Source of the DNA: Candidatus Eiseniibacteriota bacterium
GTDB taxonomy: Bacteria > Eisenbacteria > RBG-16-71-46
NCBI GenBank assembly: GCA_044223135.1
Contig: JBGAMH010000001.1
Span: 1 to 59,174, forward strand
Reading direction: 5' to 3'
DNA: 59,174 bases
In this document: in pieces, positions 14,359 through 33,052 of the stretch
How positions within the stretch are numbered: the first letter of the stretch is position 1
Layout of the letters: the number at the start of each line of letters is the position of its first letter
The notes under the pieces: model-generated
What the model was told of the DNA's origin: nothing
The model's database searches: none
What the model saw: only the letters and a program-made list of their open reading frames with translations
Made by a program: the position numbers and the translations under genes

Positions 14359-15627
14359 CTGGCCCGCATCGTCCTCGCCACGTTCGGTTCGCTCGGCGAC
14401 CTGCACCCGTTCCTCGCGCTCGGCGAGGCGCTCGCCGCGCGCGGCCACGATCCCGTGGTGACCGCCAGCGAGAGCTACCGGCCGCGCGTCGAGTCGCTGG
14501 GGCTCGCGTTCGCGCCGCTGTCGCCGGACATCGCGCGCTGGGAGCACGACACCGCGGCCATGCAGGGCGCCATGCACCTGCGCGGCGGTTCGGAGTGGAT
14601 CTTCCGCCACATGGTGGCGCCCCACGTGGAGGCGACCGGGCCCGAACTGCTGCGCGCGTGCGAGGGCGCGAGCGCGATCGTGCACAGCACGCTCGTACTG
14701 GGCGCCGCCCCGGTGGCCGAGAAGCTCGGCCTGCCGCGCGTCGCCGCGACGCTGCAGCCGCTCGCGATGTTCTCGGCGAACGACCCGCCGCTGTCGCCCG
14801 GGTTGCCGCTGGTGTCGGCCGCGCTGCGCTCGCATCCCGCGGTCGCGCGCGCGCTGATGCGCCTGGCGCGGATGGCCACGCGCGACTGGTTCGCACCCGT
14901 GGCGCGGCTCCGACGCACGCTCGGCGTGTCGCCGCGGTTCGCGCACCCGATCTTCGATGCCGACGCCGGCGCCGCCGCGCACCTGGCGATGTTCTCGCGC
15001 CACTTCGCACCCGACCCGGGCGACTGGTCCGCGCACACGCGGCAGACCGGCTTCGCGTACTTCGACCACGCGCCCGGGCCGCGCGAGCTGCCGGCGGAAC
15101 TGCGCGCGTTCCTCGAGGCGGGGCCGCCACCGGTGGTGTTCACGCTGGGCTCGGCCGCCGTGTGGGTGGCCGGCGCGTTCTACGAGCACGCGTTCCGCGC
15201 CGCGCGCGAGTTGGGCGTGCGCGCCGTGCTGCTGACCGGCGAGCGGCCCGGGAACGCTCCGCGCGAAACGCACCCGGACGTGTACGTGACCGGCTGGGCG
15301 CCCTACTCGCTGCTGTTCCCGCACGCCGCGGCGCTCGTGCACCAGGGCGGCATCGGCACCACCGCGCAGGCGCTGCGAGCGGGCCGATCTCAGATCATCG
15401 TGCCGTGGAGCCACGACCAGCCCGACAACGCGCGGCGCTGCGAGCAGTTGGGCGTGGCGCGCACGATCGGCCGCGAGCGCGCGGACGCCGACGCGATGGC
15501 GCGCGCGCTGCGCGCCGTGCTCGCCGACGCCACGATGGCCGCGCGCGCCCGCGCGATGGCCGAAGCGATCCGCGCGGAGGACGGCGCGGGAGCCGCGGCG
15601 GGGGTGGTGGAGCAGATCTCGCGCTAG
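14359..15627 (+). CDS. GT1 (MGT/UGT-like, GT-B fold) glycosyltransferase; start codon uncertain
   Basis: N-terminal loop IVLATFGSLGDLHPFLALGEALAARGH. C-terminal nucleotide-sugar motif HQGGIGTTAQALRAGRSQIIVPWSHDQPDNA. No ATG, GTG or TTG lies close to the conserved N-terminus. CTG 14359 sits 6 nt after GGAG. Confidence 0.75.
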   Translation: MARIVLATFGSLGDLHPFLALGEALAARGHDPVVTASESYRPRVESLGLAFAPLSPDIARWEHDTAAMQGAMHLRGGSEWIFRHMVAPHVEATGPELLRACEGASAIVHSTLVLGAAPVAEKLGLPRVAATLQPLAMFSANDPPLSPGLPLVSAALRSHPAVARALMRLARMATRDWFAPVARLRRTLGVSPRFAHPIFDADAGAAAHLAMFSRHFAPDPGDWSAHTRQTGFAYFDHAPGPRELPAELRAFLEAGPPPVVFTLGSAAVWVAGAFYEHAFRAARELGVRAVLLTGERPGNAPRETHPDVYVTGWAPYSLLFPHAAALVHQGGIGTTAQALRAGRSQIIVPWSHDQPDNARRCEQLGVARTIGRERADADAMARALRAVLADATMAARARAMAEAIRAEDGAGAAAGVVEQISR

Positions 15628-17657
15628 GGATCGGGCGACGGCGCGATGAGAAGCGGCAGGTCGAGGACGGCCCAGGCCACGGGCCCGGCGGCACCACGCG
15701 TGGGTTGCGCACCCGCAGCCCAGAGCACGCGCCCGAGCGATCCACCGAAGCCGGTATCGGGTCCGCGCGTGCGCACGGGCTCCGACACCGCGGAAAGGTC
15801 CACCGGGTGATCGGTCACGACGAGCTTCAGGTGATCGACTCCGAGCGGAGGCTCCACACGCCACCAGTCGGGGGCAACGAAGGTGCTCCCGGCCTCCACC
15901 GACACGCTCACCGCGCCTTCGGGCTCGAGCACGTCGCACACGCGATCGGGCCCGACGTGCAACACCGCCACGCACACGCGACGCCCCGTGCGGTTCGTGA
16001 TCACGGCACGCACCCGGTCGCCGACCTCCACCGATGTCGGCGACCCGCCGGGGTGGAGCGTGTCCGACGCGGCGCCACTTCGTGTTCGGCGACGCTCGAC
16101 GACCAGCGAGAAGTCGATGCCGTCGGCGAGAGAAGGCCCCATGGTCCCGAGCCGGCGAACGTTCTCCGCCAGCGCCACCCGGCGAAGCGCGGTTTCGAGG
16201 CTGTCCACGCCCGCCTCGCTGGCGGCGGGGAACACGCGGTCGAGCGCCACGACTCCTCCGTCCAGGACGATCGCGAGGCCAGGAGGGCGCCGTGCGCGTG
16301 CCGAGCGCGCGTCGCCGGGTGCGAGCACCGTCGCCGCGATCACGCCGAGTGTCGGCGCCGCGCCGCCGCCGGAGGTCGCGTCCACCAACTCGAGCAGCGG
16401 GTCGCCCTTCAACCGATCCCGCAACCGTGCGCGCGCGAACTCCGCCACGCTGTCCGGCGCTTCCCAGGCGAAGCGAACCGGCTCGTACCCCACGCCTGGA
16501 CGACGCATGAATGCACGCGCGCCATCGGGAAGCACGATGGATTCGTCCACCCGGAGACGGCAGTCCGACGGTGCGACCTGAACGACGGGGCCTTCCACCA
16601 GGACGGAATCGTCTCTCGCGGAGCCAGCGTGCGGGGCGCGCACCGCGAGTACGGCGCCGAGCGTGATGCCCTGCAGAAGGCCGGCCTCGACGCGCAGCAG
16701 GCCGCGCCCCTCGATCCGCACGGCCAGATCCGCGCCGTCGTCCCTTGCCGAGCCTCCGAACACGGGCTGATCCAGCGGGCCCTCGCCGAGTGGAACCTGT
16801 GCCTGGTATCGCGCCCGGATCGCCCCTCCCACGCGCGCGAGGACCTGTGCGTAGGTCGTCCGTGAGGAAGCGGTCTCGAGCACCCGGGCGAGCTGATAGC
16901 TGAACACGCTGCGGAATTCGCCGCCGATGTCCTCGACCCACGATCGTTGTCCGGGCGGAGCCGCGAACAACGCGACCCCCATCGAGTCCTCGTCCGCACG
17001 GCCGCCGTGCGGGTGGACCGTCGCTCGCGACGGGGGCAGGCCATTCTGGACCCGGCCAGTCGCGAGCCCGCGCGTCAACGTTCCCGCATGGCAGGCGTCG
17101 AAGATCAGCACGACGCGCGTCGTGTACCGACGCAACTCGGCGAGCAGGTCCGCCAGCTCGTCGTCGACGACGTCGGGGATCAGCCCCTCCGGATCACGCC
17201 CGTCCCACGGCACGAGCGTCTCGTCGTAGCCGTCCGGTTCCCAGGGTTCGTGGTCGAGGTCCGCGGCACGCGAACCGTGCCCGCTGTACTGGAGCACGCA
17301 GAGCGCGCCGGGATGGAGCCGGGCGTTCTCCACGAGTTGCTCACGAATCGCCGAGAGGATGCCCGCACGGGTGGCCTGTGAATCCGCCAGGGTCCGGAAG
17401 TCCTCCGACCGGAATCCGTAGTGGCGCACCAGGACTTCGCGCAGATCGCGCACGTCCGCGACCGGCCCCGGAAGCCGGGGCACCCACCGGTAGTGCTCGA
17501 TTCCGATCTGCAGGACGAACCGGGCCGTCGGAGGGGGCGTCCGGGGATCTGGCGTTCCGGCCCACGCGCCGGCGGCGGCCGCTACGAGCTGGAGCGCAAG
17601 CAAGCCTGCCCACAGACGTGCGGCCGGCAGCCCGCCTGCCCGAAACCGTCCGATCAT
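15624..17657 (-). CDS. exported caspase-like peptidase (family C14) with beta-rich C-terminal extension (DUF4384-like, tentative)
   Basis: Signal peptide MIGRFRAGGLPAARLWAGLLALQLVAAAAGAWAG. Catalytic dyad contexts LQYSGHGS and LIFDACHAGT. SD gggagg lies before the ATG. The stop overlaps the convergent glycosyltransferase stop by 4 nt. Confidence 0.85.
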   Translation of the reverse strand: MIGRFRAGGLPAARLWAGLLALQLVAAAAGAWAGTPDPRTPPPTARFVLQIGIEHYRWVPRLPGPVADVRDLREVLVRHYGFRSEDFRTLADSQATRAGILSAIREQLVENARLHPGALCVLQYSGHGSRAADLDHEPWEPDGYDETLVPWDGRDPEGLIPDVVDDELADLLAELRRYTTRVVLIFDACHAGTLTRGLATGRVQNGLPPSRATVHPHGGRADEDSMGVALFAAPPGQRSWVEDIGGEFRSVFSYQLARVLETASSRTTYAQVLARVGGAIRARYQAQVPLGEGPLDQPVFGGSARDDGADLAVRIEGRGLLRVEAGLLQGITLGAVLAVRAPHAGSARDDSVLVEGPVVQVAPSDCRLRVDESIVLPDGARAFMRRPGVGYEPVRFAWEAPDSVAEFARARLRDRLKGDPLLELVDATSGGGAAPTLGVIAATVLAPGDARSARARRPPGLAIVLDGGVVALDRVFPAASEAGVDSLETALRRVALAENVRRLGTMGPSLADGIDFSLVVERRRTRSGAASDTLHPGGSPTSVEVGDRVRAVITNRTGRRVCVAVLHVGPDRVCDVLEPEGAVSVSVEAGSTFVAPDWWRVEPPLGVDHLKLVVTDHPVDLSAVSEPVRTRGPDTGFGGSLGRVLWAAGAQPTRGAAGPVAWAVLDLPLLIAPSPDP

Positions 17658-17746
17658 CCGTTCCCCTCCCTTCGTGCTTCGGCCATAGTGCGACACCTCC
17701 CCGACGGTGCGACGAGTACCCGGACGACAGCAACCCGAGACGGAGC

Positions 17747-20700
17747 ATGTCCCACCCGCGCCACAACGACCAAGACTCGAAGCGCGTTCCGTGGCGCCGA
17801 CTGGTTCGGGGCCTCCTCCTGCGCCTGTTGCTGGGTGCGCTCGGCGCGACCTTCCTCGCGAGTCCGGCACCCGCACTCACGAGCGGCAGGCGCCCACGGG
17901 CGCTCGACGAGGCGCGCCGGATCGAGGCCCGGGCCTCCACCGATCGCGAGCGCGGAGCCGTCGGCGAGGCGGCGGCGGGCTTCGCGCGCGCGGCGGACCA
18001 CCGTTTCGCGGCGGGCGCGTCGCACTCGAACATCGCCGATCGACTGGACAGCCTGGGACGGACGTTTCACGACGTTCCCCATGCGGGCGCATGGGCGGCC
18101 GAGGACTCGCTGCTGGAGATCGCACACCAGTGGCGTCGACGGGATCCCGACGCCACGGCCTTCGACCTCGGGTTCGATCACCTCCAGCTCGCCCGGCTGG
18201 CCGTGGAAACCCACCGCCCCGCCACCGGCCTCCCTCACGCCGATTCGGCATGGGTCCTGTTCGCAGCCAGCCCCGATCCGGGCGCACGCCTCTACGGTGC
18301 TCTTGCGCGCGCGGCCAGAGGTCGGCTCTCGTTCGACGTCGGTGACTACGTCGACGCCGACACGTCGGCCACCGCGGCACTGTCGGGAATGGATGCCGGC
18401 GATGTGCAGCAGGCGCCCTACCGGTTCGACGCCCTCACCGCGCGCGGGGAAGCCCGACGCGAACGGGGTCGCCTCGCCGAAGCCGAAGCCGATTTCCGGG
18501 CCGCACTCGATCTCGCCGAACGCGAAGCAGCCGATCCGGCCTGGAGGCCCAACGCACTCAATCTCATTGCTGGCCTCCATCGCGATCAGGAGCGTTGGGA
18601 TCTTGCCGAACCGCTCCTTCGCGAGGCGCTGGAGCTGTCCCGTCCTCTCGAGCAGAACGATCCTCGTCGCGTCGCGACGGCCGTCTTGAACGTGGCGGAA
18701 GCCCTGCAGCACCAGGGACGGTCGCAGGAGGCAGCGCCCGGTTACCTCGAGGCCGTCGAGCGCGCGCGACGCGCGTGGCCACCCGAGGACCCGGGGCTCG
18801 TCGTGTTCCTGCAACAGGCCGGGGACTGCCTCCGGCAGGTCGGACGGGGGGAGGACGCCGAACGGCTTCTGCGGGAAGCCGTCACGACAGCCCGTGCCGA
18901 CTCGCAGGGCGGCCCACTCCCGCTCGCCGGTGCCATGCACGCACTCGCCGAGCTGATGCTCGAACGCGGCCGCGTGGTGGCCGCCGATTCGCTCGCCCGC
19001 GGATCTCTGACCCTGCGCGAACAGCGCCTCCCGTCGGATTCCCGTGTGCTCGCCGAAAGCCACGAGCTCCTCGCGCGCTGCGCGCTCGCGGAGGGGGCGG
19101 GTTCGCTGCGCGAAGTGGAGATCCATGCGGAAGCCGTGCTGCGCATCCTCGGGCAAAGCCCTCTCGCCCCCGACACGAGGCTCTCGGCATTCGCGGCCCT
19201 CGCGGGTGTCGCCGAAGCGCGCGGCGACACGGGCGCGTTCGATCGATGGATGGGAAGCGCCCTCCCGGTCGTCGACGAGTTGCGGCTGACGCGTGGGGGG
19301 GATGCCAGTCGGGTGCAGTTCCTGCGGCGCGCGCTCCCGATGTTCGACCGCGTATTCGATCACGCGATCGCGGTCGGCGACATCGACCGCGCCTTCCAGA
19401 TTCACGAGCGTGGCCGGAGCCGCGTCCTGCTGGAGACTCTCGCTGCTCCCCGCGCGCTCGGGGGCACGGACGACCGAAGCGGCGATCCGCTCGTCGCGCG
19501 CCTCGACACGCTGCGCCAGCAACTCACCGGCCTCCAGGCGCGGCTCGACTCGGAAGGGCAATGGTCGATGCTGTCCGAGAGCGTCCAGTTCGAGCGTCGG
19601 TCGGCCCTCGCGGCCCGTCGTGACAGCCTCGTGCTCGAGTACGCCCGTGTGCGAGACGCCGTCCGCATGCGCCGCCCCGGGTGGCGAGACGCGCTCGCGC
19701 ACTCGCGCTCGACCGTGGGCGCGCCCGCGGTCCTCGCGCACGCCCGGCGCCTCGGCGAGCCGGTGCTCGTCTATCACGTGAGTGCGCGGGGGGCGTGGCT
19801 CTTCTCGTTCCTGCCCGGCGATCGGCAACCGCGGCTCGACACGCTCCGGCTGGCCGAGACGGCGGCGCGGGCACTCGGAGTTCGACCCGGCCCGCTCGAT
19901 GACGCACGCCTCTCCGTGATCCTCGAAGGGACCTCGCCGGGAGCCGGGCTGCTCTCGGCCCTGGCGCGAGGTGAAGGGGACACCCGCGGATTCTCGCGCG
20001 TGCGCACCGACGCGGTGATCGCTCCGACCGACGCGCGACTGAAACTCCTGTTCGAAGCACTCGTTCCGGCCACGACCTGGCGCCGGATTCGCCATGCGCG
20101 TACGGCCGTCGTGATCCCGGACGGCAGCCTCGCGAGTCTGCCGTTCGATGCGCTCGTCGTGGACACCGGCGCGACGGCGTCCGCGCGCCGCTACTGGCTC
20201 GACGACGGCCCCGCATTGCGGGTCGCGCCCTCGGCGAGCACGCTGCTCGTGTTCGACGATCGTCCGCGCGGGCCTCATCGCGATGGCCGCCTCGCGCTGT
20301 CGCTGTACGACGTCGAATACCGGGACACTTCCCAGGCCGACCGAACCGTCGCCTGGAGACCGCTGCCGGGCACGCGCGTCGAGGCCGAACGGCTCCGCAG
20401 CGCGCTGGGAGCCGCCAACGTGGACACGCTTTCCGGTACGCGCGCCACGGAGGCGGCACTTCGAGAGGCTCTCCCCGGGCACGCGCTCGTCCACCTGGCG
20501 ACCCACGGCTTCGCCTCGGGGGACGAGAGCGAGCTGCTCGCTGGCCTGGTCCTCGCGCCGGGAACGAGCTCGCGTCGCCCCGAGGACGACGGCCGCCTCC
20601 AGTCGTACGAGTTGCCCGAACTCACGCTCGATGCCTCCCTCGTGGTGCTTTCCGCCTGCGAGACGAACGGCGGCCGGCGCATCGCGGGCGAGGGCGTGTT

Positions 20701-20947
20701 CGCGCTCTCGCGCGGATTCCTTGCCGCCGGCGCACAGCGCGTGATCTCCGCGCTCTGGTCGGTGCCCGACGATGCAACGGCCGAACTGATGGGCGGACTG
20801 TTCGAGCGCCTCGCCCCGGCGCTGCGCTCCGCGCGTACGCCCGATGCCGTCGTGGCGCTGCGCGACGCCAAGCGGCGCGTCCGGCGCGACCCCCGGTGGG
20901 CCGCGCCGTCCGCGTGGGCCGCGTTCACGATGTCCGGCCGCCGGTAG
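17747..20947 (+). CDS. TPR-repeat CHAT-domain protease-like protein with N-terminal hydrophobic anchor
   Basis: N-terminus MSHPRHNDQDSKRVPWRRLVRGLLLRLLLGALGATFLASPAPA. TPR-like helical repeats follow (LNVAEALQHQGRSQEAAPGYLEAVE and others). The C-terminal CHAT motifs are LVHLATHGF and VVLSACETNGG..GFLAAGAQRVISALW. Confidence 0.85.
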   Translation: MSHPRHNDQDSKRVPWRRLVRGLLLRLLLGALGATFLASPAPALTSGRRPRALDEARRIEARASTDRERGAVGEAAAGFARAADHRFAAGASHSNIADRLDSLGRTFHDVPHAGAWAAEDSLLEIAHQWRRRDPDATAFDLGFDHLQLARLAVETHRPATGLPHADSAWVLFAASPDPGARLYGALARAARGRLSFDVGDYVDADTSATAALSGMDAGDVQQAPYRFDALTARGEARRERGRLAEAEADFRAALDLAEREAADPAWRPNALNLIAGLHRDQERWDLAEPLLREALELSRPLEQNDPRRVATAVLNVAEALQHQGRSQEAAPGYLEAVERARRAWPPEDPGLVVFLQQAGDCLRQVGRGEDAERLLREAVTTARADSQGGPLPLAGAMHALAELMLERGRVVAADSLARGSLTLREQRLPSDSRVLAESHELLARCALAEGAGSLREVEIHAEAVLRILGQSPLAPDTRLSAFAALAGVAEARGDTGAFDRWMGSALPVVDELRLTRGGDASRVQFLRRALPMFDRVFDHAIAVGDIDRAFQIHERGRSRVLLETLAAPRALGGTDDRSGDPLVARLDTLRQQLTGLQARLDSEGQWSMLSESVQFERRSALAARRDSLVLEYARVRDAVRMRRPGWRDALAHSRSTVGAPAVLAHARRLGEPVLVYHVSARGAWLFSFLPGDRQPRLDTLRLAETAARALGVRPGPLDDARLSVILEGTSPGAGLLSALARGEGDTRGFSRVRTDAVIAPTDARLKLLFEALVPATTWRRIRHARTAVVIPDGSLASLPFDALVVDTGATASARRYWLDDGPALRVAPSASTLLVFDDRPRGPHRDGRLALSLYDVEYRDTSQADRTVAWRPLPGTRVEAERLRSALGAANVDTLSGTRATEAALREALPGHALVHLATHGFASGDESELLAGLVLAPGTSSRRPEDDGRLQSYELPELTLDASLVVLSACETNGGRRIAGEGVFALSRGFLAAGAQRVISALWSVPDDATAELMGGLFERLAPALRSARTPDAVVALRDAKRRVRRDPRWAAPSAWAAFTMSGRR

Positions 20948-21386: not shown

Positions 21387-21500
21387 GACGATGTCCTCCT
21401 CTTCGCGCTGGGGAGCCGACTTTCCGGTGCGGAATCTCCACTCCGGCGATTTCGCTGCTCGCGGGGCGCCGCCGGGCGGCGCGTGCGTGCCGGTGCGAAG

Positions 21501-26179: not shown

Positions 26180-26197
26180 CCCGGGGACGAGCCGAAG

Positions 26198-26222
26198 CCC
26201 CGCCGGGGATCTCCCGGCGGGG
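26198..26222. terminator. 10-bp GC hairpin between convergent genes
   Basis: ccccgccggg-gatct-cccggcgggg, 19 nt after the stop at 26179. There is no U-tract. Confidence 0.4.
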
Positions 26223-26328
26223 CGAGGGGCTTCGTCACCGTGCCAGCGGGTCGCGGTGCGGAGCCTCCCGGATCGTGCTCCGCGTGGGGCGAGACCTCCT
26301 TTCCGGTGCGCCCACGCACCGGCGGGAA

Positions 26329-26688
26329 TCACCGCGCCGTGATCCGGTACTCGTTCCAGACGGACCCGCGGTTGTCGACCTCGATGCGATAGCTGCCGCC
26401 GCGCGGCACGTAGAACCGCGTGATGCACACGTCGGTGTCGTCGTCGTCCGACGCGATCATGCGGCCGCTCTCGTCGTACACGTACAGATCGAGATCGGTG
26501 TCGTGGTCGCCGATCACGGTCACGCTCGCGTACTCGCCGCCGCGGAACGACACGTTGAACGCATCCTCCGACCACGCGTTCACGCGGTGCACGCCCGTCT
26601 GCGTCCCTCCCCAGGGACCCGCCACCGCCGCCTGCGCCACCGCCACCACCGCCAGCACCGCCGCCACCAGTCCGTTGAACTTGCGCAT
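26329..26688 (-). CDS. small exported PPC-like domain protein, paralog B
   Basis: 119 aa. AGGAGG lies 6 nt before the ATG. Signal peptide MRKFNGLVAAVLAVVAVAQAAVAG. Motif VTVIGDHDTDLDLYVYDESGRMIASDDDDTDVCITRFYVPRGGSYRIEVDNRGSVWNEYRITAR. Roughly 45% identical to paralog A by hand alignment over about 87 aa. Confidence 0.85.
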   Translation of the reverse strand: MRKFNGLVAAVLAVVAVAQAAVAGPWGGTQTGVHRVNAWSEDAFNVSFRGGEYASVTVIGDHDTDLDLYVYDESGRMIASDDDDTDVCITRFYVPRGGSYRIEVDNRGSVWNEYRITAR

Positions 26689-26763
26689 CGTCTGCCTCCT
26701 GTCGGTGAGCCCGATGGGCTCGTGGTCTTCGTTCCGGCGCTCCATCCGAGCGCCTTCACACCG

Positions 26764-26792
26764 TTCGTTGCTCGACCCGGCGGGCTGTGACA
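26764..26792 (-). promoter_or_regulatory. bipartite element TGTCACAG-N13-GCAACGAA (copy b)
   Basis: Minus strand reads tgtcacag cccgccgggtcga gcaacgaa, ending 76 nt before the start at 26688. Confidence 0.6.
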
Positions 26793-26935
26793 TCGGAGTC
26801 CCCCGCGCGCCACGAAGCGCGGTCGCGCCGCAGGTGGAGTGGTGGACGGCGGCGCCGCAGGCACGAGACACGAAGAAGCGGACCGGCCGCATGGGCCGAT
26901 CCGCTCCTCGTACCGAGCTCCGCTTGCCGCGCGGG

Positions 26936-27304
26936 TCAGTCGCCGTGGCGCAGGTGGCGCAGTCCCTCGCGCCAGGGATGCACGCGGGCCCCGCGACAGT
27001 CGCTGCCCTCGCAGTCGCCCGCGGCGCGCGCGGCGCGACGGTCGCCCGTATCGCAGACCTGCGGGCGGGCGACACGGCCGCGACAGTCATTGCCCTCGCA
27101 GTCGCCGCGGGCCGATGCGACCGCCGCCGCCGCAGGCGCGCTCCCGGCGAAGCACGGATCCGTATCGCATTCGCCGCGAACGACAACCACCACCGTGGCC
27201 GGTGCAGGGGTCTCGATGCACGGATCCGTCTCGCAGCTCCGTCCCGGGCCGGCCATCGCCACGAGCCCCAGTCCCAGCGCCAATCCCATCACGATCGCCT
27301 TCAT
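26936..27304 (-). CDS. small exported acidic Cys-repeat (CX4C) protein with His-rich tail
   Basis: 122 aa. GGAGG lies 6 nt before the ATG. Signal peptide MKAIVMGLALGLGLVAMAG. Repeats CETDPC, CDTDPC, GDCEGNDCRG and GDCEGSDCRG. Tail HPWREGLRHLRHGD. The nucleotide repeat gacagtc(g/a)(c/t)tgccctcgcagtcgcc appears twice. Confidence 0.7.
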   Translation of the reverse strand: MKAIVMGLALGLGLVAMAGPGRSCETDPCIETPAPATVVVVVRGECDTDPCFAGSAPAAAAVASARGDCEGNDCRGRVARPQVCDTGDRRAARAAGDCEGSDCRGARVHPWREGLRHLRHGD

Positions 27305-27364
27305 CTGCCACCTCCTTCGTTCGAGTGTCCGCCGTGGATCCGGCGGCCCGTTGCCGCCGCCCGC

Positions 27365-27393
27365 TTCGTTGCCCGGAGCGCCCGGGTGTGACA
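27365..27393 (-). promoter_or_regulatory. bipartite element TGTCACAC-N13-GCAACGAA (copy c)
   Basis: Minus strand reads tgtcacac ccgggcgctccgg gcaacgaa, ending 61 nt before the start at 27304 and 13 nt after the lipoprotein stop. Confidence 0.6.
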
Positions 27394-27405
27394 CCCCGTC
27401 CGGCG

Positions 27406-27780
27406 CTAGTTCACGTTCAGCGACACGGCGGCTGGCACGTCGCTGTCGTTCTCGACCGTGATCTCCACGCGTCCGCCCCCCTGCGCGGCGCCCCCGACCA
27501 CGTCCGCACCCGTGTACGCCCCCTCGGCGGCGAGCGCGCCCGACGCCCCGAAGACCCGGACCTCCATGCCCACGGTGACGAGTCCCGGGCTGCACGCGAC
27601 GGCCCACGTGCCGTCGTGCGCGAACGTCTGACCGACCACGACCCGCTCGCCCGGATTCACCGAGCGCGTGTTGAGCGCGGTCGCGAGGATGTCCTCCGCG
27701 ATGCACCCCGTGAGCGAAGCGCCGACCAACCCCGCCAGCACCAACGCCATCGTCGCCCGAACCGCCTTCCGCATCGCCAT
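27406..27780 (-). CDS. small lipoprotein, beta-rich
   Basis: 124 aa. GGAGG lies 6 nt before the ATG. Lipobox in MAMRKAVRATMALVLAGLVGASLTGC. The C-terminus GGGRVEITVENDSDVPAAVSLNVN resembles the last strands of the PPC-like proteins. Confidence 0.7.
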   Translation of the reverse strand: MAMRKAVRATMALVLAGLVGASLTGCIAEDILATALNTRSVNPGERVVVGQTFAHDGTWAVACSPGLVTVGMEVRVFGASGALAAEGAYTGADVVGGAAQGGGRVEITVENDSDVPAAVSLNVN

Positions 27781-27850
27781 GCCGCACCTCCCGTTCGTGG
27801 GCGGGCACCGCGCGCCGTCCGGGGCGCGGCGTTTCCGCCGGTACGCCTCG

Positions 27851-27879
27851 TTCGTTGCGCGCGCGGCGCGCGTGTGACA
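27851..27879 (-). promoter_or_regulatory. bipartite element TGTCACAC-N13-GCAACGAA (copy d)
   Basis: Minus strand reads tgtcacac gcgcgccgcgcgc gcaacgaa, ending 71 nt before the start at 27780. Confidence 0.6.
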
Positions 27880-27901
27880 CCCGGACGGCCGACGGTTTCC
27901 G

Positions 27902-27931
27902 TTGACCCTGTCACACGCGGTTCCCTAGGCT
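27902..27931 (+). promoter_or_regulatory. sigma70-type promoter candidate TTGACC-N18-TAGGCT for the sigma operon
   Basis: ttgacc at 27902-27907 and taggct (fits TAnnnT) at 27926-27931, 51 nt before GTG 27982. The spacer contains TGTCACAC (27909-27916), the inverted mate of the box at 27872-27879. Confidence 0.4.
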
Positions 27932-27981
27932 CCCGCCCCACGCGCCGCGCCGACCCGGCCGGCGGGAGGCCCACTCAGACC

Positions 27982-28563
27982 GTGACGGAACCCATCCCCG
28001 CCCGAGAGGAACAGCGCATCGCGTCGGAAGCCCGCACCTGGTACCTCGCCTTCTTCGAGCGGCGGGTCGGGGCGCGTGGCCGCGACCTCGCTGACGACCT
28101 CGCCCAGGAAGCGGCCATCGGCCTGCTGCGCGCGCTGCGCGCGACGGGCGCCGATTCGCTCGAGGCCCTGCGCGCGACCATCGGAACGCGTACGTGGTTC
28201 GGCTTCCTGCGCCGCGAGTACCGGTGGAAGAAGGTCTGGGACGACACCGCCGTGGAAGAGACGGACGCGCCGGCGCCGCCCGCGACGCAGCCCGGGGCCC
28301 ACCTGCACGTGGGTGATCCGGGCGAACGACTCCGATTCCAGGTGCTCGAGTTCTATCGCGCCCACAACGCGAAGTGCCTGGGGCTCGCCGAGCTCTTCTT
28401 CGGCGGGGTGGACTGGATGGACGCCGCCTCGCGGCTGAACCTGGGGTACGCGGCCATCCGCCAGCAGTGGTCCCGCTGCCTCAAACTGCTGCGCGAAGTC
28501 GTGACCCGCGACGAGGACCTGCGTGACTCGCTCTGGGCCTTCTGGAGCGACAGCGATGCCTGA
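27982..28563 (+). CDS. ECF-type sigma-70 family factor (divergent)
   Basis: 193 aa from a GTG, with GGAGG 12 nt upstream. Region-2-like segment DLAQEAAIGLLRAL..TRTWFGFLRREYRWKK. Region-4-like HTH WMDAASRLNLGYAAIRQQWSRCLKLLRE. Followed by an anti-sigma gene. Confidence 0.65.
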   Translation: MTEPIPAREEQRIASEARTWYLAFFERRVGARGRDLADDLAQEAAIGLLRALRATGADSLEALRATIGTRTWFGFLRREYRWKKVWDDTAVEETDAPAPPATQPGAHLHVGDPGERLRFQVLEFYRAHNAKCLGLAELFFGGVDWMDAASRLNLGYAAIRQQWSRCLKLLREVVTRDEDLRDSLWAFWSDSDA

Positions 28564-28723
28564 CGCCCGTCACAGCGAGGCCCCCCGCGCAACGATGCCT
28601 GCGAGGGGCCGATGGATCGGGGGCGTTCGCGGCGGGAACGGCACCCGGTGCGAGGGCGCGAGCCCGTGGATCCACCACGGCGCAGCGACCGCGCAGAGGC
28701 CCTCGAGGTCTGCGAATGAGTGA
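28556..28723 (+). CDS. possible 55-aa bridging ORF between sigma and anti-sigma genes
   Basis: Its ATG at 28556 overlaps the sigma stop (ATGCCTGA) and its stop at 28721-28723 overlaps the anti-sigma start (ATGAGTGA). GC3 is about 84% by hand count. The Arg/Gly-rich sequence has no recognisable motif. Confidence 0.25.
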   Translation: MPDARHSEAPRATMPARGRWIGGVRGGNGTRCEGASPWIHHGAATAQRPSRSANE

Positions 28724-29675
28724 CACGCGAACGCCTCCGGGCGGCCCGCCGCCGGCCGACCACGCCTGGGTACTGAGTCGCCTCGCCCCGTACTGGGCCG
28801 GCCTGCTCGACGACTCCGCGAACGAGCGCGTCGAGTCGCACGTCGCCTCGTGCGAGCCGTGCCGACGCGCATGGGAGGCGCAGTCCGCGACGCCGGCGAT
28901 CACGCCGGGAGCCGAAGCGCACGTACCGGCGGCGCTCGTCGCGGACTGGGATCGCCAGCAACGCACGCTGCGCGGGCTCGAACGGGCCACCGTCCGGCAT
29001 CACCTCGAACGCTGCGACGATTGCCGCCGCGACCTGCAGGCACTCGGTCACGAGCCCGTGCTGGAGTTCATCGCCGCGCTCGAGCCCGAGGGCATGATGC
29101 CCGGCACGGCGGCGCCACCCGCCGCTGCACGGCGGGAGGTTCGACCGACGGCGATGGAGGGCGCGCTCGATCGCCTGCGCCGTTTCAACTGGGTCCTCGG
29201 AAGCTGGGCCGCCCTCGCCACGAGCGCCGCCGCGGTGATGACGTTCGTGCTGTTGCGCGGTGGGGCACCGATCCCGGAGGGCACGCTGCCGCAGCCGGGA
29301 TTCGGCGGACCGGGCACGACCAGCATCTCCTCCGGCGCACTCCCTTCGGTGGAGGCCGCGGTCACGCTCGTGCTTCAGCCGGGGGCACCGGGCGAGGGAC
29401 CGGTCGCCCTGGCCCCGGCGGCGGCGCCTCGACGCGTGATCGCGCTGCAGCTGCGCGGGCTGACCACCGCACCCGACGACAGCCTCCGGTTCGTGATCGA
29501 GCAGGGCTCGCGGACCGTCGTCCGGCAGGCTCTGCCAGCGAAGCTCGCCGCCGATTCGGTGTTCACGGTGGTCCTGCGCGGCGCCCCGAGGGCGCTGCCG
29601 CCGGGCGCCTACCGGCTTCGCGTCGGGGGTGCCGCCGGGGAGAGGGCGTATGCCTTCCGAATCGCGGAGCGCTGA
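28716..29675 (+). CDS. membrane anti-sigma factor with two zf-HC2 (ZAS) motifs
   Basis: HVASCEPC and HLERCDDC both fit H-x3-C-x2-C. One transmembrane segment (WVLGSWAALATSAAAVMTFVLL) is followed by a ~135-aa extracytoplasmic domain. Confidence 0.75.
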   Translation: MSDTRTPPGGPPPADHAWVLSRLAPYWAGLLDDSANERVESHVASCEPCRRAWEAQSATPAITPGAEAHVPAALVADWDRQQRTLRGLERATVRHHLERCDDCRRDLQALGHEPVLEFIAALEPEGMMPGTAAPPAAARREVRPTAMEGALDRLRRFNWVLGSWAALATSAAAVMTFVLLRGGAPIPEGTLPQPGFGGPGTTSISSGALPSVEAAVTLVLQPGAPGEGPVALAPAAAPRRVIALQLRGLTTAPDDSLRFVIEQGSRTVVRQALPAKLAADSVFTVVLRGAPRALPPGAYRLRVGGAAGERAYAFRIAER

Positions 29676-31686
29676 GCGCAAGCGAGGCCCACGAGGGATC
29701 GCGGTGCGCCTCGGAACGGGCCTGGCGCTCACGCTCATGCTCACGCTCGCGCTCGCGAACGGCGCGGGTTCGGCAGGACCCGTCCGGCTCGTGCGCCCCG
29801 GCGCGACGGTCGAGCTCCGACGCGCGCCCATCGGCACGCAACCGCTCATCGGCCTGCCGGTGGTTCGCGCCCTGCGGGCAGGCAGCACGCCGAAACGCCG
29901 TGAAGCCGCCGACGACCGCCTGGTCGCCTATCACGTCGAGTTCGCCGACGCGGCCAGCTGCAACCGGTACGCACCGCCCGGAGGGACGGTCTTCCATCGC
30001 TTCCAGCGCTTCGCCGGCGTGTTCGTGGCTTCGGACCGGATCGACGACCTCGTCCGGGCCACGGTGCGCGCGCCCGGATTCCGCGCGATCGAGGACGACG
30101 ACATCACGCAGCTCCCTCCGCGCCCCCGGCCGAGGACCGCACCACCCTCGAAGGCGGTGCCCGAGAACATCGTGCGCGGCGGGCTCGCCGGGCTCACCGG
30201 GCGCGGCACGCTCGTGGGCATCGTGGACACCGGCGTCGATTTCCGGCACAGCGACTTCGTCACGGAAGGGTCCGACGGTCCTCGTTCACGCATCGTGGCG
30301 TACTGGGACACCGGCCTGCCGTTCGATCCGTCGCGCGGCAGCGGGCGACCGGGCCCGATCACCTATCCGAACGGCCAGCCCGTGGGCACGGTGTTCACCG
30401 GCGCCGAGCTCACCCACGCCCTGCGGAATGGCGGACTCGACGATCTCGTCGATCACGTCGGGCACGGCACGGCCTGCGCCGGGATCGCCGCCGGCAACGG
30501 GCGCGGCCTGGAGAGCACGCGCGAGGTGCTGGGCGTGGCTCCCGGCGCCGCGCTGCTCGTGGTGCGCGCCCAGACCTCGGACGAACTCCCCGGGCTCTCG
30601 AACTTCGTGATCACTCCCGCGGTCCACTGGATGAGCACCATCGCCGACTCGCTGCGCCGCCCGCTCGTCGTGTCCTGCTCGTTCGGCCAGCAGATCGGTC
30701 TGCACGACGGCAGCCGGCTCGTCGAGCGCGAACTGGAAGCGCTGCTGCCGGACGGAGCGCCCGGGCGCGCACTCGTCGTTTCGGCGGGCAACGACGGCAC
30801 GCGGCCGGTGCATGCTCGCATGACGCTCGGCGCGAAGCCGCAGGTGCTCGAATGGCATTGTGGCGACGGCGACGCGTTGCTCGAGCTGCACCTGCGGACC
30901 CGCGACTCGAGCGCGGTGCAGGCCGCGGTCGCCGTTCGCTCCGACAACCGCCCGTCCGACATCGCGACCTACCCGCTCGCGCCCGTCGTGAAGGGCTCCG
31001 CCTGGCAGATCGTGCGCTTCCGGGTGGCAGGCGACATCGGCGGCATCTACCTCTGGTCGAAGACTCCGGGCGTGCCGGTCGAGGCCTACATTTCGGGTGG
31101 GGAGTTCGCCGCCCGGTTCACGGTGCCGACGGGCACGGTGGCGAGCCCGGGTACGTGCCGCGCGGCGATCACGGTGGGGAGCTACGACTGGAACGACATG
31201 TTCGATCAGAAGGGGCTCGGCCCGACGACACTCTTCAACGCCTGTTCGGAGACACCCATCGAGATCGGTGAACTCTCGTGCTATTCCAGTCGAGGCTTCG
31301 TGCACCGCGGGCTCGTGAAGCCCGACCTCGTCGCGCCCGGGCAGTGGTTCACGGCACCCGTGTCTCTCCTCGCGCCCGATCGGCCCGCCGGGCTCGGCAT
31401 GGCTTCCGCGGGAGTGTACGAAGGCCTGCACGGCTCCGGGCACTACCGCTGGTTCAACGGCACGAGCGCTGCCGCGCCATACGTGGCGGGCGTGCTCGCT
31501 CTGGCGCTGGAGCGCGATCCCCGTCTCACGCTCGGTTCGCTTCGAAACCGATTGCGCGCGAGCCTCTCGCGGGACGCGACGACCGGCGCCGTGCCCAACA
31601 CGGCGTGGGGATACGGTCGGCTCGACCTCGCCGCCGTGAAGCGGTTCCTCGCCGTCGGCGTGCGCGCCACACCCCGGGGTCGTTGA
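29650..31686 (+). CDS. secreted subtilisin-like serine peptidase (family S8)
   Basis: Signal peptide RLGTGLALTLMLTLALANGAGSA. Catalytic triad contexts GIVDTGVDFRH, DHVGHGTACAGIAAG and FNGTSAAAPYVAGVLALAL, with VVSAGNDG for the oxyanion Asn. It overlaps the anti-sigma 3' end by 26 nt; the alternative start is 29629. Confidence 0.9.
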   Translation: MPSESRSAERKRGPRGIAVRLGTGLALTLMLTLALANGAGSAGPVRLVRPGATVELRRAPIGTQPLIGLPVVRALRAGSTPKRREAADDRLVAYHVEFADAASCNRYAPPGGTVFHRFQRFAGVFVASDRIDDLVRATVRAPGFRAIEDDDITQLPPRPRPRTAPPSKAVPENIVRGGLAGLTGRGTLVGIVDTGVDFRHSDFVTEGSDGPRSRIVAYWDTGLPFDPSRGSGRPGPITYPNGQPVGTVFTGAELTHALRNGGLDDLVDHVGHGTACAGIAAGNGRGLESTREVLGVAPGAALLVVRAQTSDELPGLSNFVITPAVHWMSTIADSLRRPLVVSCSFGQQIGLHDGSRLVERELEALLPDGAPGRALVVSAGNDGTRPVHARMTLGAKPQVLEWHCGDGDALLELHLRTRDSSAVQAAVAVRSDNRPSDIATYPLAPVVKGSAWQIVRFRVAGDIGGIYLWSKTPGVPVEAYISGGEFAARFTVPTGTVASPGTCRAAITVGSYDWNDMFDQKGLGPTTLFNACSETPIEIGELSCYSSRGFVHRGLVKPDLVAPGQWFTAPVSLLAPDRPAGLGMASAGVYEGLHGSGHYRWFNGTSAAAPYVAGVLALALERDPRLTLGSLRNRLRASLSRDATTGAVPNTAWGYGRLDLAAVKRFLAVGVRATPRGR

Positions 31687-31693
31687 CGCCCGC

Positions 31694-33052
31694 TCACCGC
31701 AACAGGACGACGGACGTCGATCGCCGCTGCCGCGTCGCTTCCAGGACCGCGAAGTAGACCCCCGGCGGCAGCACGCGGCCGTCCGCGCCGAGCGTGTTCC
31801 AGACGGCTTGCCTCGGGCCCGGCGGCAGGTCCGCGTCGAGTATCGTCGCCACGGTCGCGCCGGCCACGTCCAGAACCCGAAGTCGCACGGGGCCCGGAAC
31901 GGGCAGCGCGAACTGGAACCGGACGAGCGTCCCCGCCCGGGCCGGGTTCGTGCCCGCCCGGAGGAGCAGGCTCGCCGCGGGTTGCGGTCGTTCGGCATCC
32001 ACCTGCGCACCACACTGGAAGGGCGTCGCCCAGCACACGCCCGAGAGCGACGGAGCGTTCGTCGAGCGCACGATCGTGAGCTGCTCCGGCGGTCCGTCGC
32101 GCTGAATCGTGTAGCCGGCCCCGGGGCAGGCCTGCTGGAGACACGGCCAGCTGCACGTCCAGTCCGATCCCGTCCACACGCAGTTCCACACGCAGAGGGA
32201 CGTCGGAGAGGGCACCTGGAATCGCTGCGTCTGCCCGGCCGGGATCGTCGACGAGTTGCTGCCCACGGAAACCAGCACGCTCCCGGAATAGGCGTTCGTC
32301 ACCGAGATGGTGCAGGCGCGGCAGGCCACGGGCAGGTCCGGCCACGCGGCCGAGGCCTCCGACGACACTGGCGACGTCGGGTGCGTGGACGAGACGTCCG
32401 CTTCCATCGACACCCCGCACGCGGAGGGCGCGGATACGCCCCAGAAGAACGGCGGATGTCCCGGGTAGGGGGACTCCACGGACCACCAGCCGGTGACCGC
32501 GTACTGGGCGCCGGGCGTGAGCCCCGTCAGGATCAGGCGTGCACGCGCGGTGTCGCAGGGCGCAGCGGGCACCGCGGGCGACGCGGCGAATCGCAGGCAG
32601 CGCGAGCCATTCACGAACGCCACGGAAGCTCCGGCCCCCATCCGCCAGCCATCCGCGAACCAGTCTCCGGCGAAGTCCTCGTCGAGCACCGGAGTGCCAC
32701 TGCTGGAATAGCACCAGTTGTGATAGAGCGGGTTGCCATTGGCGTCCGTCACGTTCGGACAGCGCGTGCAGACGGGATTGCTGCGCAGGTCGCCGTAGCG
32801 CTGAACGAGGATGTCGTCGATGCCGACCACGCCGTACGACGTACCGCTCGAGGACGTGAGCTTCACCGCCAGGTCGACGAAGACCGTGCAACTCGGCGCG
32901 AAGAAGTAGAGCGGGTCCTGCATCTGGCACCAGTCGATGGCCGGGTACGGGCGGTCGATCGGCCGCATGGGCACGAGCGTCCGTTCCGCGTGCGCGTCGG
33001 CGGCTCCCACCAGCAGGGCGATCGCGACGCCGAGGGCCGCCCCGGCGCGCAT
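31694..33052 (-). CDS. secreted Cys-rich protein with FlgD-Ig/T9SS-like C-terminal domain; N-terminal module shared with the giant protein
   Basis: 452 aa. Signal peptide MRAGAALGVAIALLVGAADAHA is followed by ERTLVPMRPIDRPYP. There are many Cys residues (CTRC, CVWNCVWTGSDWTCSWPC). The C-terminus reads VRLRVLDVAGATVATI..PPGVYFAVLEATRQRRSTSVVLLR. The rest of track ORF 31694-34972 is shadow. Confidence 0.8.
   Translation of the reverse strand: MRAGAALGVAIALLVGAADAHAERTLVPMRPIDRPYPAIDWCQMQDPLYFFAPSCTVFVDLAVKLTSSSGTSYGVVGIDDILVQRYGDLRSNPVCTRCPNVTDANGNPLYHNWCYSSSGTPVLDEDFAGDWFADGWRMGAGASVAFVNGSRCLRFAASPAVPAAPCDTARARLILTGLTPGAQYAVTGWWSVESPYPGHPPFFWGVSAPSACGVSMEADVSSTHPTSPVSSEASAAWPDLPVACRACTISVTNAYSGSVLVSVGSNSSTIPAGQTQRFQVPSPTSLCVWNCVWTGSDWTCSWPCLQQACPGAGYTIQRDGPPEQLTIVRSTNAPSLSGVCWATPFQCGAQVDAERPQPAASLLLRAGTNPARAGTLVRFQFALPVPGPVRLRVLDVAGATVATILDADLPPGPRQAVWNTLGADGRVLPPGVYFAVLEATRQRRSTSVVLLR

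Follow-up and report, generated by a model that had tools for sequence, protein, structure and literature searches.

In Escherichia coli and Bacillus subtilis, the extracytoplasmic function (ECF) sigma factors sigmaE and sigmaW are released by regulated proteolysis of their anti-sigma factors, RseA (through DegS and RseP) and RsiW (through PrsW), respectively. Caspase-like (C14) and CHAT peptidases, both of which have the caspase fold (clan CD), act as cytoplasmic proteases in bacterial gasdermin-mediated cell death. Cytoplasmic enzymes of these kinds are also known from CRISPR type III-E, and far less is known about versions that carry a signal peptide. Here we describe a 17.4-kb block of genes in which exported caspase-fold proteases lie beside a probable ECF-like sigma factor and its anti-sigma factor. 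The block is part of a 59,174-nt stretch of DNA (hereafter the window) from an uncultured soil bacterium, Candidatus Eiseniibacteriota (assembly GCA_044223135.1, contig JBGAMH010000001.1, positions 1 to 59,174). It encodes an exported C14 peptidase, an exported TPR-CHAT peptidase and an exported S8 subtilase, the sigma-like protein and the anti-sigma factor, five small exported proteins (minis A to E), and two surface proteins (cargo1 and cargo2). We propose that it is a two-layer module for proteolysis outside the cytoplasm, in which a cassette of small PPC-fold proteins and caspase-fold proteases operates under an Eisenbacteria sigma/anti-sigma circuit, and we give this proposal an even chance of being right.

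In type III-E CRISPR systems, Csx30 binds the ECF sigma factor RpoE and is cut by the TPR-CHAT protease Csx29, and some Csx30 C-terminal domains are DUF4384 domains (bioRxiv 10.1101/2022.08.17.504292). These systems provide a published precedent for signaling from a CHAT protease to a sigma factor. The block resembles this Craspase arrangement in that a TPR-CHAT gene is genetically linked to genes for an ECF-like sigma factor and an anti-sigma-like protein, and in that DUF4384 is found on the C14 partner of a related cassette (locus L035, described below). It differs from Craspase in that its proteases have export signals and are predicted to act outside the cytoplasm and in that the small partner has a PPC fold and is not Csx30 or Csx31. 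Neither Cas7-11/gRAMP nor Csx30/Csx31 appeared among the Pfam, NCBIfam and PADLOC results for the block and its flanks, and no repeat array was found there. A 2012 survey described metacaspase operons with sigma-70-family factors in Myxococcus, Anaeromyxobacter, Haliangium, Sorangium, Ralstonia and Fibrobacter and noted that many prokaryotic metacaspases have N-terminal signal or transmembrane segments (PMC3501461). The block likewise has caspase-type peptidases colocalized with a sigma factor; judged by the survey's description, it departs from those operons in its small PPC-type partner, its pairing with CHAT and its promoter motif. In our literature searches, we found no role assigned to caspase-like or CHAT proteases with signal peptides.

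Minis B and C belong to a family of small exported proteins that we call mini-PPC. We scanned one genome per GTDB species for the back-translated peptide pattern [TS]DLDLY[VI]Y[DS] and confirmed 246 mini-PPC loci among these species representatives, whereas a word-indexed protein search with mini C returned 18 matches; the estimate of rarity that follows from the latter search is badly misleading. An exact look-up of the mini C sequence gave matches on contigs of at most 1.4 kb only. The neighbors of the family were surveyed in 80 of the 246 loci, with flanks of up to 10 kb, and in two more (L013 and L015), for a total of 82, by searching six-frame open reading frames (ORFs) with hidden Markov models grown from the CHAT, C14 and mini C domains of the window. 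A CHAT or C14 ORF was present in 55 of the 82 loci. The gap between it and the mini-PPC gene was less than 1.4 kb in 40 of these 55, mostly on the same strand, and about 15 further loci, of the Prevotella/Bacteroidales type, had a CHAT ORF about 4 kb downstream on the same strand. None of the surveyed loci had a CHAT or C14 ORF between 5.4 and 10 kb from the mini-PPC gene. Both protease types were found in 17 of the 82 loci, as they are in the window. A signal-peptide-like N terminus was present, by a crude hydrophobicity test, in 61 of the 89 CHAT and C14 ORFs of these loci, and the caspase domain follows directly on such an N terminus in many of the C14 partners.

According to the record titles, mini-PPC loci occur in Bacteroidota, Planctomycetota, Acidobacteriota, Lentisphaeria, Pseudomonadota and Eisenbacteria, and cultured carriers include Bacteroides uniformis, Bacteroides ilei, Prevotella and Larkinella. 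Among the loci examined, the S8 subtilase, the sigma and anti-sigma factors, minis A, D and E, and the N-terminal module of the cargo proteins were found in Eisenbacteria only. The pairing of a mini-PPC protein with a caspase-fold protease is the old core of the system, and the sigma factor, anti-sigma factor, S8 and cargo are a layer specific to Eisenbacteria. An initial annotation of the window had supposed that the small proteins modulate the proteases or the large cargo proteins; the conservation of this neighborhood across phyla backs a link between the minis and the proteases, and its functional side we infer. Our literature search, the coverage of which was incomplete, found no account of a PPC/C14/CHAT cassette or of the free-standing mini-PPC family and the pairing of its members with exported caspase-fold proteases.

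The arrangement is particularly compact in L035, a Pyrinomonadaceae locus in which a PPC gene (9653-10345), a C14-DUF4384 gene (10349-12328) and a TPR-CHAT gene (12330-15656), as identified with Pfam, lie operon-like on one strand. The mini-PPC homologue of this locus scores 23.1 bits against PF04151, for which the gathering score is 25.9. In L035 and in L037, a bona fide ECF sigma gene (PF07638, E = 3.8e-61) adjoins the PPC gene divergently, so that the cassette may have come under sigma control on more than one occasion. Two kinases, a Reg_prop/Y_Y_Y histidine kinase and a Ser/Thr kinase with TPRs, are also encoded near the cassette in L035 (3592-9517) and in L037. In many of the loci of the Prevotella/Bacteroidales type (L025 to L086; for example, L081, 10001-16763), the mini-PPC gene heads a conserved same-strand run that encodes a protein of about 490 amino acids without a Pfam hit, an FHA-transmembrane-trypsin-like protein, a kinase-like protein with a hydrophobic, transmembrane-like segment (partial Pkinase match, E = 3.6e-7), and a TPR-CHAT protease. 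The composition of this run suggests a transmembrane signaling or proteolysis apparatus.

We modeled mini C with AlphaFold2 (AF2) from an 18-sequence alignment. The mature domain of about 95 residues was predicted to be an eight-stranded beta-sandwich without a flexible tail, with a predicted local distance difference test (pLDDT) score above 93. The best Foldseek match was the C-terminal beta-jelly-roll domain of the subtilisin Tk-SP (3afg; E = 3e-6, root mean square deviation [rmsd] of 1.7 A over 93 columns), and collagen-binding domain 3 of ColH (3jqw, E = 1.3e-4) and the PPC domain of a Bacillus anthracis collagenase (5sv5, E = 1.7e-3) were also found. Over 90 to 94 columns, the rmsd to solved PPC and collagen-binding folds was 1.7 to 2.3 A, and TM-scores relative to the query were 0.66 to 0.69. 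The subtilases KP-43 and SubHal also matched, through their C-terminal domains, as did, more distantly, GOLD domains and the lysozyme inhibitor PliG. As modeled, then, mini C has the jelly-roll fold that solved PPC and collagen-binding domains share. The residues that are invariant in the family form two acidic clusters, GDxDTDLDLYVYD and SDDDxTDxC, and an NRG motif, and the acidic sequence suggests Ca2+ binding. The fold is shared with the C-terminal PPC and jelly-roll domains of Tk-SP, ColH and the B. anthracis collagenase; unlike those domains, which are fused to serine or metalloproteases, the mini-PPC proteins of the block are free-standing, have their own signal peptide and promoter, and are encoded beside caspase-fold proteases.

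Minis B and C, which are 45% identical (E = 3e-35), are clearly paralogous, and mini B is a member of the mini-PPC alignment (A1). The PPC match of mini C (PF04151, E = 5.7e-4, 21.1 bits) lies below the gathering score, and the Pfam search with PF04151 gave no match for minis A, B and D. Mini A is a weak relative of mini B (BLASTP E = 1e-5) that has lost the acidic motif and aligns with the mini-PPC profile over 69 columns (hhalign E = 0.0018). Minis D and E are unrelated to minis A, B and C by sequence, and mini D has no similarity to the mini-PPC profile. Orthologues of mini D adjoin the sigma gene in four relatives (L015, L019, L020 and L022, 36 to 93% identity), and orthologues of mini E were found only in the closest ones (L019, 48%; L022, 98%). 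The mini E gene contains a direct repeat (26991-27019 and 27078-27106, 93% identical). All five small genes lie on the minus strand and have AGGAGG- or GGGAGG-type ribosome-binding sites. We also considered the minis as decoys of the periplasmic domain of the anti-sigma factor, and this idea was rejected, as hhalign found nothing. The 5' untranslated regions (UTRs) of mini B (21931-22003) and mini C (26689-26763) have two hairpins in common, GGCGCTC...GAGCGCC and GGCCCG...CGGGCC, directly 3' of the -10 element; the hairpins are also present in the counterparts from L015 and L020 and matched no Rfam family. The sequence of these UTRs is conserved; a conserved RNA structure was not accepted, because only 2 of 18 pairs covary across four sequences, which is too few.

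The window is about 72% G+C along its whole length, and genes were therefore called from third-position G+C (GC3) and a coding log-odds score. All of the components that the initial annotation listed are present, at the positions given in the table, and hydrophobic, signal-like N termini were found on every protease, mini and cargo protein of the block. The genes follow one another in the order C14, TPR-CHAT, mini A, mini B, cargo1, mini C, mini E, mini D, sigma, anti-sigma, S8, cargo2.

Features of the block, with positions in the window; lengths are those of the encoded proteins
Feature	Positions	Strand	Length (aa)	Remarks
C14 peptidase	15624-17657	-	677	caspase type, exported; C-terminal region of ~380 aa
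TPR-CHAT peptidase	17747-20947	+	1066	exported
mini A	20925-21386	-	153	degenerate PPC-like paralogue; no promoter motif of its own in this genome
mini B	21550-21930	-	126	exported mini-PPC; AGGAGG ribosome-binding site
promoter element, mini B	22004-22032	-		kept in L015, L020
cargo1	22217-26179	+	1320	surface protein: signal peptide, RPIDRPYP N-module, FG-GAP repeats, FlgD_ig-type C-terminal domain
mini C	26329-26688	-	119	exported mini-PPC
promoter element, mini C	26764-26792	-		exact match
mini E	26936-27304	-	122	exported, Cys-rich; CxTDPC and DCEGxDC repeats; GGAGG ribosome-binding site
promoter element, mini E	27365-27393	-		exact match
mini D	27406-27780	-	124	small lipoprotein, LTGC lipobox; divergent from the sigma gene
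promoter element, mini D	27851-27879	-		kept as YGTCACA-N14-GCRACGRA in L015, L019, L020
ECF-like sigma (likely)	27982-28563	+	193	highly divergent
fifth promoter element	28568-28596	+		CGTCACA-N14-GCAACGAT; between sigma stop and anti-sigma start
anti-sigma	28716-29675	+	319	transmembrane, one helix; two HxxxCxxC motifs; ~140-aa periplasmic domain
S8 subtilase	29650-31686	+	678	exported
cargo2	31694-33052	-	452	surface protein: signal peptide, RPIDRPYP N-module, cargo1-like C-terminal domain

Each of the three proteases is well above its curated cut-off and has its catalytic residues in place, as read in the sequence. The C14 peptidase (PF00656, E = 4.8e-22, 79.2 bits against a cut-off of 21.4) has an intact His/Cys dyad (YSGHGS and FDACHAG) after an N terminus that reads as a signal peptide. 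Its C-terminal region matches the C14 partners of loci L015, L029, L035, L037 and L044, among them acidobacterial and planctomycete ones, and DUF4384 is present in the L035 orthologue. The gene for the TPR-CHAT peptidase is divergent from that for C14, with a spacer of 89 nt. The protein (PF12770, E = 1.1e-56, 192.9 bits against a cut-off of 24) has the His/Cys motifs HLATHG and LSACET and also matches TPR_12 (61.6 bits) and TPR_MalT. The subtilase matches PF00082 in two stretches (E = 2.9e-33, 115.8 bits against a cut-off of 21.8) and has the Asp/His/Ser triad (DTGVD, HGTACAG and GTSAAAP); its best NCBIfam match, CspBA type, is far below the cut-off. The presence of three proteases with export signals agrees with the initial annotation, which had called them unrelated; because C14 and CHAT are both caspase-fold enzymes, the block holds two protease folds.

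The element TGTCACA-N14-GCAACGAA has exactly four matches in the 59 kb, all of them on the minus strand, where 0.10 would be expected, and none of 100 shuffles reached four. The four sites begin about 100 nt upstream of the start codons of minis B, C, E and D. We trained a position weight matrix (PWM) on these four exact sites alone and scanned the window, which gave a fifth site with a score of 20.0; the next best site scored 11.8, and shuffled sequences gave 0.15 hits of 15 or more per trial. The fifth site begins 5 bases past the stop codon of the sigma gene, some 150 nt before the anti-sigma gene starts. All five sites are on the coding strand, about 95 to 150 nt upstream of start codons. 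In three relatives (L015, L019 and L020), YGTCACA-N14-GCRACGRW precedes every mini gene, and the site in the sigma/anti-sigma spacer is kept at the same position in L019 and L020. The scan found no comparable site upstream of mini A; orthologues of this gene in L015 and L020 carry the motif. The common promoter element that had been noted for four small genes is therefore real and is kept upstream of the minis in relatives. The wider description of the block as sigma controlled holds, by motif, only for the small proteins and the anti-sigma/S8 operon; the C14, CHAT, cargo and sigma genes have no such site upstream.

The geometry of the element is ECF-like, with a CGA-type -10 element. The ECF41 promoter is TGTCACA-n16-CGTC, and its -35 heptamer has been called ECF41 specific (PMC3426412). 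The -35 heptamer of our element, TGTCACA, is identical to it; unlike in ECF41, the -10 element is GCAACGAA and not CGTC or TGTT, and the sigma-like protein has no C-terminal extension and is accompanied by an anti-sigma factor, with no COE gene seen among the neighbors. The window contains five TGTCACA heptamers, all within the block. One of them, on the plus strand at 27909, forms an inverted repeat with the mini D -35 element in the mini D/sigma spacer (27873-27915; CGCGTGTGACA ... TGTCACACGCG). Autoregulation of the sigma gene through this heptamer was rejected, as it has no -10 element, and the best PWM score upstream of the sigma gene was 0.9.

The anti-sigma factor was readily identified. 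It matches PF13490 (zf-HC2) in two stretches (E = 7.9e-11, 42.3 bits against a cut-off of 22.2) and NF052375 (E = 1.6e-6), and its two zinc-binding anti-sigma (ZAS) motifs read HVASCEPC and HLERCDDC. Its gene begins 152 nt past the end of the sigma gene and overlaps the start of the S8 gene by 26 nt. The sigma-like protein is more difficult. An AF2 model has two helical domains joined by a disordered linker, with a pLDDT of 77 to 88 in the C-terminal domain, and about 45 of the 50 top Foldseek hits of this low-confidence model, none of them significant, are sigma factors, mostly of the ECF type (AlgU, SigL, RpoE-NepR, BldN and SigH). Relatives are exceedingly few: only 6 were found among 5.8e9 proteins, and a metagenome scan with the sigma profile gave three weak loci, of which one was informative (L102; sigma 40% identical, double-ZAS anti-sigma kept). 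Taking the weak structural and sequence matches together with the adjoining ZAS anti-sigma factor and the ECF-like bipartite motif, we consider it likely, but not proven, that the regulator is a very divergent ECF-like sigma factor. The lineage is tiny and unclassified. Of the pair first annotated as an ECF-like sigma factor and a double-ZAS transmembrane anti-sigma factor, the second stands, with both ZAS motifs and a score above the cut-off, and the first is represented by weak, subthreshold matches.

With its adjoining anti-sigma gene and the bipartite sites before local genes, which the sigma factor is predicted to use, the locus is much like the sigmaE-RseA and sigmaW-RsiW modules. A small sigma-like protein, apparently of two domains, is encoded beside a single-pass anti-sigma factor with a cytoplasmic sigma-binding domain (here ZAS) and an extracytoplasmic domain; the promoter is bipartite (-35/-10); there is a small local envelope regulon; and a sigma-type promoter would drive the anti-sigma gene, which would give negative feedback. 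It differs from them in that the sigma factor passes no curated model, in that there are two ZAS motifs in the anti-sigma factor, with translation of the subtilase coupled to it, and in a predicted regulon of tiny proteins with the PPC fold and of other exported proteins. The predicted sigma-dependent promoter, moreover, lies between the sigma and anti-sigma genes and not upstream of the sigma gene, and thus reads as negative feedback without positive autoregulation, which to our knowledge is unusual for ECF systems. In the literature, within the same incomplete coverage, we found no account of this sigma lineage with a double-ZAS anti-sigma factor and promoter or of the RPIDRP[YF]P module described below. 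The domain families and the logic of ECF control are already known.

We compared the block with four Eisenbacteria relatives. L022 (JBGAOB010000004.1) is a near-identical strain (sigma 96% and mini C 97% identical) that is collinear with the window at 87 to 89% DNA identity over 21526-36666, except in the center of cargo1, and that keeps mini B to cargo2 before its contig ends. L015 (sigma 62% identical) has CHAT(+), C14(-), mini A, mini B, cargo1, mini D, sigma, anti-sigma, S8 and, after S8, two cargo genes, one for a 985-aa protein starting with RPIDRPFP and one for a 1,201-aa protein with similarity to the cargo2 N-module. The order of the CHAT/C14 pair is swapped relative to the window, and the pair is still attached to the block. 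L020 (sigma 64% identical) has the same order from C14 to anti-sigma, up to the end of its contig, and in L019 (sigma 82% identical) the part kept runs from mini E and mini D to cargo2. Between them, the L015 and L020 contigs include CHAT, C14, the minis, cargo1, sigma, anti-sigma, S8 and RPIDRP-cargo. A look-up of protein clusters returned no names for the proteins of Eisenbacteria. Within the clade, therefore, the components occur together as a block, as had been suggested: the three more distant relatives keep those parts that their contigs cover, and the near-identical L022 keeps them partly.

Cargo1 contains FG-GAP repeats (FG-GAP_3, E = 5.9e-22) and a C-terminal FlgD_ig domain (28.2 bits against a cut-off of 27); its score for the T9SS type A C-terminal sorting domain (TIGR04183, 18.2) is weak, as the cut-off is 23. 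By BLASTP, cargo1 and cargo2 are similar in an N-terminal module (E = 1e-6) and in the C-terminal domain (E = 1e-5), and the C-terminal domain of cargo2 is known from this similarity alone. The motif RPIDRP[YF]P, 5 to 8 residues past the predicted signal-peptide cleavage site, is invariant in the orthologues of both cargo proteins and in the 985-aa paralogue from L015, which are otherwise about 28 to 56% identical. Cargo2 orthologues are present in L019 and L022, and N-module paralogues are present in L015. A profile of the N-module found only 14 clusters among 1.84e9 representative proteins, a word-indexed protein search with it gave no matches, and distant members carry PPRPIDRKFP-like variants. 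Stand-alone relatives of about 255 aa (P0050 and P0053 to P0055) have a PPRPIDRKFP-like motif after the signal peptide and a conserved WGxxKxxYR ending. A FlgD_ig/Por-tail-like C-terminal domain occurs in five proteins of the window and is therefore not specific to the block. The three outside it (289-2004, minus strand; 10316-13324, minus strand; and 39269-40573, plus strand) have FlgD_ig or Por_Secre_tail-like ends, and one also has FG-GAP repeats. Cargo1 and cargo2 thus have both modules in common, as annotated, with the C-terminal one being a general export or anchoring feature of the genome. The central part of cargo1 (about 2.2 kb, 22828-25014, the FG-GAP region) aligns with L022 only in a patch of 67% identity, and the cargo1 protein is 55% identical to its L022 counterpart, against 88 to 97% for neighboring genes; the pattern resembles allelic replacement or diversification in a region exposed at the surface.

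We propose the following scheme, which starts from the gene content, the promoter motif, the synteny and the cross-phylum neighborhood, all of them directly observed. The first layer would be an old, widespread cassette of a small exported PPC-fold protein and one or two exported peptidases of the caspase fold, namely, C14 with a DUF4384-type tail and TPR-CHAT. In it, the mini-PPC protein would be the dedicated partner of the C14/CHAT proteases, most likely as a tight-binding regulator or inhibitor or as a stabilizer acting in trans and less likely as a substrate. The second layer would be the divergent ECF-like sigma factor, held at the inner membrane by the double-ZAS anti-sigma factor. Inactivation of the latter, either by proteolysis (for which the cis-encoded S8, C14 and CHAT are candidates) or through its zinc/thiol ZAS motifs, would allow the sigma-RNA polymerase complex to read YGTCACA-N14-GCAACGA promoters. 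Transcription would then include the anti-sigma/S8 operon and minis B, C, D and E, with mini A reached by read-through from mini B, so that the outputs would be more protease partners, more S8 and fresh anti-sigma factor, the last of these acting as negative feedback. The RPIDRP[YF]P surface proteins would be probable clients of the proteases, with the invariant motif after the signal peptide as a candidate processing or recognition site. That the sigma factor reads the motif, that the proteins bind or cleave one another as drawn, and that regulation runs in this direction are predictions from sequence, and release of the sigma factor by proteolysis, inhibition or stabilization of the proteases by the minis, and the role of RPIDRPYP proteins as clients are put forward in the same spirit. 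A bolder version, which we advance only tentatively, would make the mini-PPC protein an obligate partner (inhibitor, activator or bait) of a large class of exported C14-DUF4384 and TPR-CHAT proteases in a periplasmic or surface proteolytic signaling cascade of six phyla, gut Bacteroides and Prevotella included, wired in Eisenbacteria to a previously unclassified ECF-like sigma factor through destruction of the double-ZAS anti-sigma factor by proteases, and thus an extracytoplasmic counterpart of Craspase-Csx30-RpoE.

Several results weigh against the two-layer scheme, and many of them would suit independent modules that lie side by side: a sigma/anti-sigma/S8 set with a small regulon, a mini-PPC/C14/CHAT cassette and ordinary surface proteins with a C-terminal sorting domain, many of which this genome encodes, with the sigma layer functionally unconnected to the caspase-fold proteases and the cargo. 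The PWM scan found no motif upstream of C14, CHAT, cargo1, cargo2 or the sigma gene, so that sigma control does not extend demonstrably to the C14, CHAT and cargo genes. The sigma and anti-sigma factors, S8 and the cargo N-module occur only in a single narrow clade, in which the synteny of S8 and cargo could reflect common descent and linkage is inseparable from shared ancestry. The L102 sigma/anti-sigma pair is not followed by S8, the cassette outside Eisenbacteria occurs without this sigma factor, S8 and cargo, and proteins with the C-terminal domain are frequent. As for the cassette itself, 27 of the 82 loci had no CHAT or C14 gene, 14 of them with ample flanks and 13 with a flank of less than 5 kb on at least one side; mini-PPC loci of the Alloprevotella type are solo; and the adjacency to CHAT/C14 was judged by the distribution of distances and by the general rule that such genes are few in each genome. 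By hhalign, the mini-PPC profile has no similarity to the periplasmic domain of the anti-sigma factor, mini D or S8. Independent modules would leave unexplained, however, why a sigma-type promoter precedes the canonical mini-PPC genes B and C, the family of which is tied to CHAT/C14 across phyla; why the linkage outlasts rearrangement of CHAT and C14; why an N-module as rare as that of the cargo occurs in two or three copies inside the block of each relative; and why another ECF sigma factor adjoins the cassette in Pyrinomonadaceae. We regard this explanation as serious but unlikely.

It is also conceivable, although we think it improbable, that the mini-PPC protein is a substrate or pro-form that exported caspase-fold proteases cleave to an active fragment, such as a signal, an adhesin or a toxin, in formal likeness to gasdermin/protease operons or to Craspase and Csx30. 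The bacterial gasdermin operons of Johnson et al. 2022 reportedly have a small partner gene and, after it, at least one protease gene (caspase-like, CHAT, trypsin-like or subtilase), in many cases with repeat domains, and the order seen here, with the small gene first and the protease or proteases after it, resembles theirs; in contrast to those operons, no gasdermin fold is present, the partner being a 95-aa beta-sandwich, and every component has an export signal. Protease types vary (C14, CHAT and trypsin-like) around one small partner, as would suit a substrate, and the invariant Arg of the NRG motif would suit the Arg/Lys-specific orthocaspases, a specificity stated in PMC6426788. The high-confidence model of a compact mature domain without a flexible tail speaks against cleavage to an active fragment, as do the kinship of the fold with accessory or stabilizing domains of proteases and with binding modules and the lack, in our searches, of any pore-forming or toxin-like feature or defense-family match. 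Still less probable, to the point of being very doubtful, is that the repeated element is an operator for another regulator, as its sequence alone could allow, or a remnant of duplication, and that the sigma-like protein is not a sigma factor. The sigma-family scores are all subthreshold (Sigma70_r2, E = 3.4e-3, 17.6 bits against a cut-off of 24; TIGR02937, E = 6e-3, 16.2 bits against 42.9), a six-sequence sigma profile found SigK region 4 (sigma-4) as its best match among PDB sequences with E = 0.073, and the AF2 model has an overall pLDDT of 64.7 and a best Foldseek E value of 0.05, with none below 1e-3. Moreover, the 65 nt upstream of the paralogues mini B and mini C are 72% identical (repeat family D3), so that part of the motif similarity could be inherited. 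Yet the element is bipartite with a fixed 14-nt spacer and also precedes the unrelated mini D, mini E and anti-sigma genes, where the spacer and flanks are unconserved; it is kept in relatives while its surroundings diverge; and the protein adjoins a bona fide ZAS anti-sigma factor and has sigma factors as almost all of its best structural neighbors. The least probable of the explanations, which we would all but dismiss, is an antiphage or abortive-infection defense island with caspase, CHAT and subtilase effectors. CHAT and caspase proteases do act in type III CRISPR and gasdermin defense, and generic PADLOC models match ("caspase," E = 3.8e-14; "subtilase," E = 3.4e-17), with a marginal BovA match (E = 5.6e-4) and none for the minis, sigma and anti-sigma factors. 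These matches are to generic catalytic domains only, however; export signals are present on each of the proteases and on the small partners; Pfam, NCBIfam and PADLOC gave no NTPase, nuclease, CRISPR or gasdermin component among the matches of the block; and the flanks are metabolic or envelope genes.

The block had also been described as an island. Comparison of its composition with that of the flanks showed the same G+C content and a lower GC3 in the large block genes (0.82 to 0.89, against 0.91 to 0.97 in flanking genes; in the region 15624-33154, C14 has 0.83, CHAT 0.82, cargo1 0.85, anti-sigma 0.86 and S8 0.87). Low expression, relaxed selection or a different history could account for the difference. 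Horizontal acquisition is unsupported, as there is no tRNA gene and GC3 is the only measure that departs from the flanks, and the Pfam matches of the flanks include no integrase or transposase. An Rfam search of 15 to 34 kb matched no family, and a generic scan for sigma-70 promoters and terminators was uninformative, with results at or below shuffle expectation. To the left of the block, a 667-aa ORF (8276-10279, plus strand) in which the coding signal is very strong (GC3 of 0.95) matched nothing in Pfam at E <= 1e-4.

These results provide handles on exported caspase-fold proteases. The first is a small partner that is conserved across six phyla and present in cultured carriers. The second is the compact circuit of Eisenbacteria, with a likely sigma factor, an anti-sigma factor and five sites, which predicts which genes respond together, and the third is the rare RPIDRP[YF]P motif, as a mark of candidate substrates. 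If the partner is an inhibitor or an activator of the proteases, the two would constitute a new protease-regulator pair, and if the proteases cleave the anti-sigma factor, they would represent a new trigger for ECF signaling.

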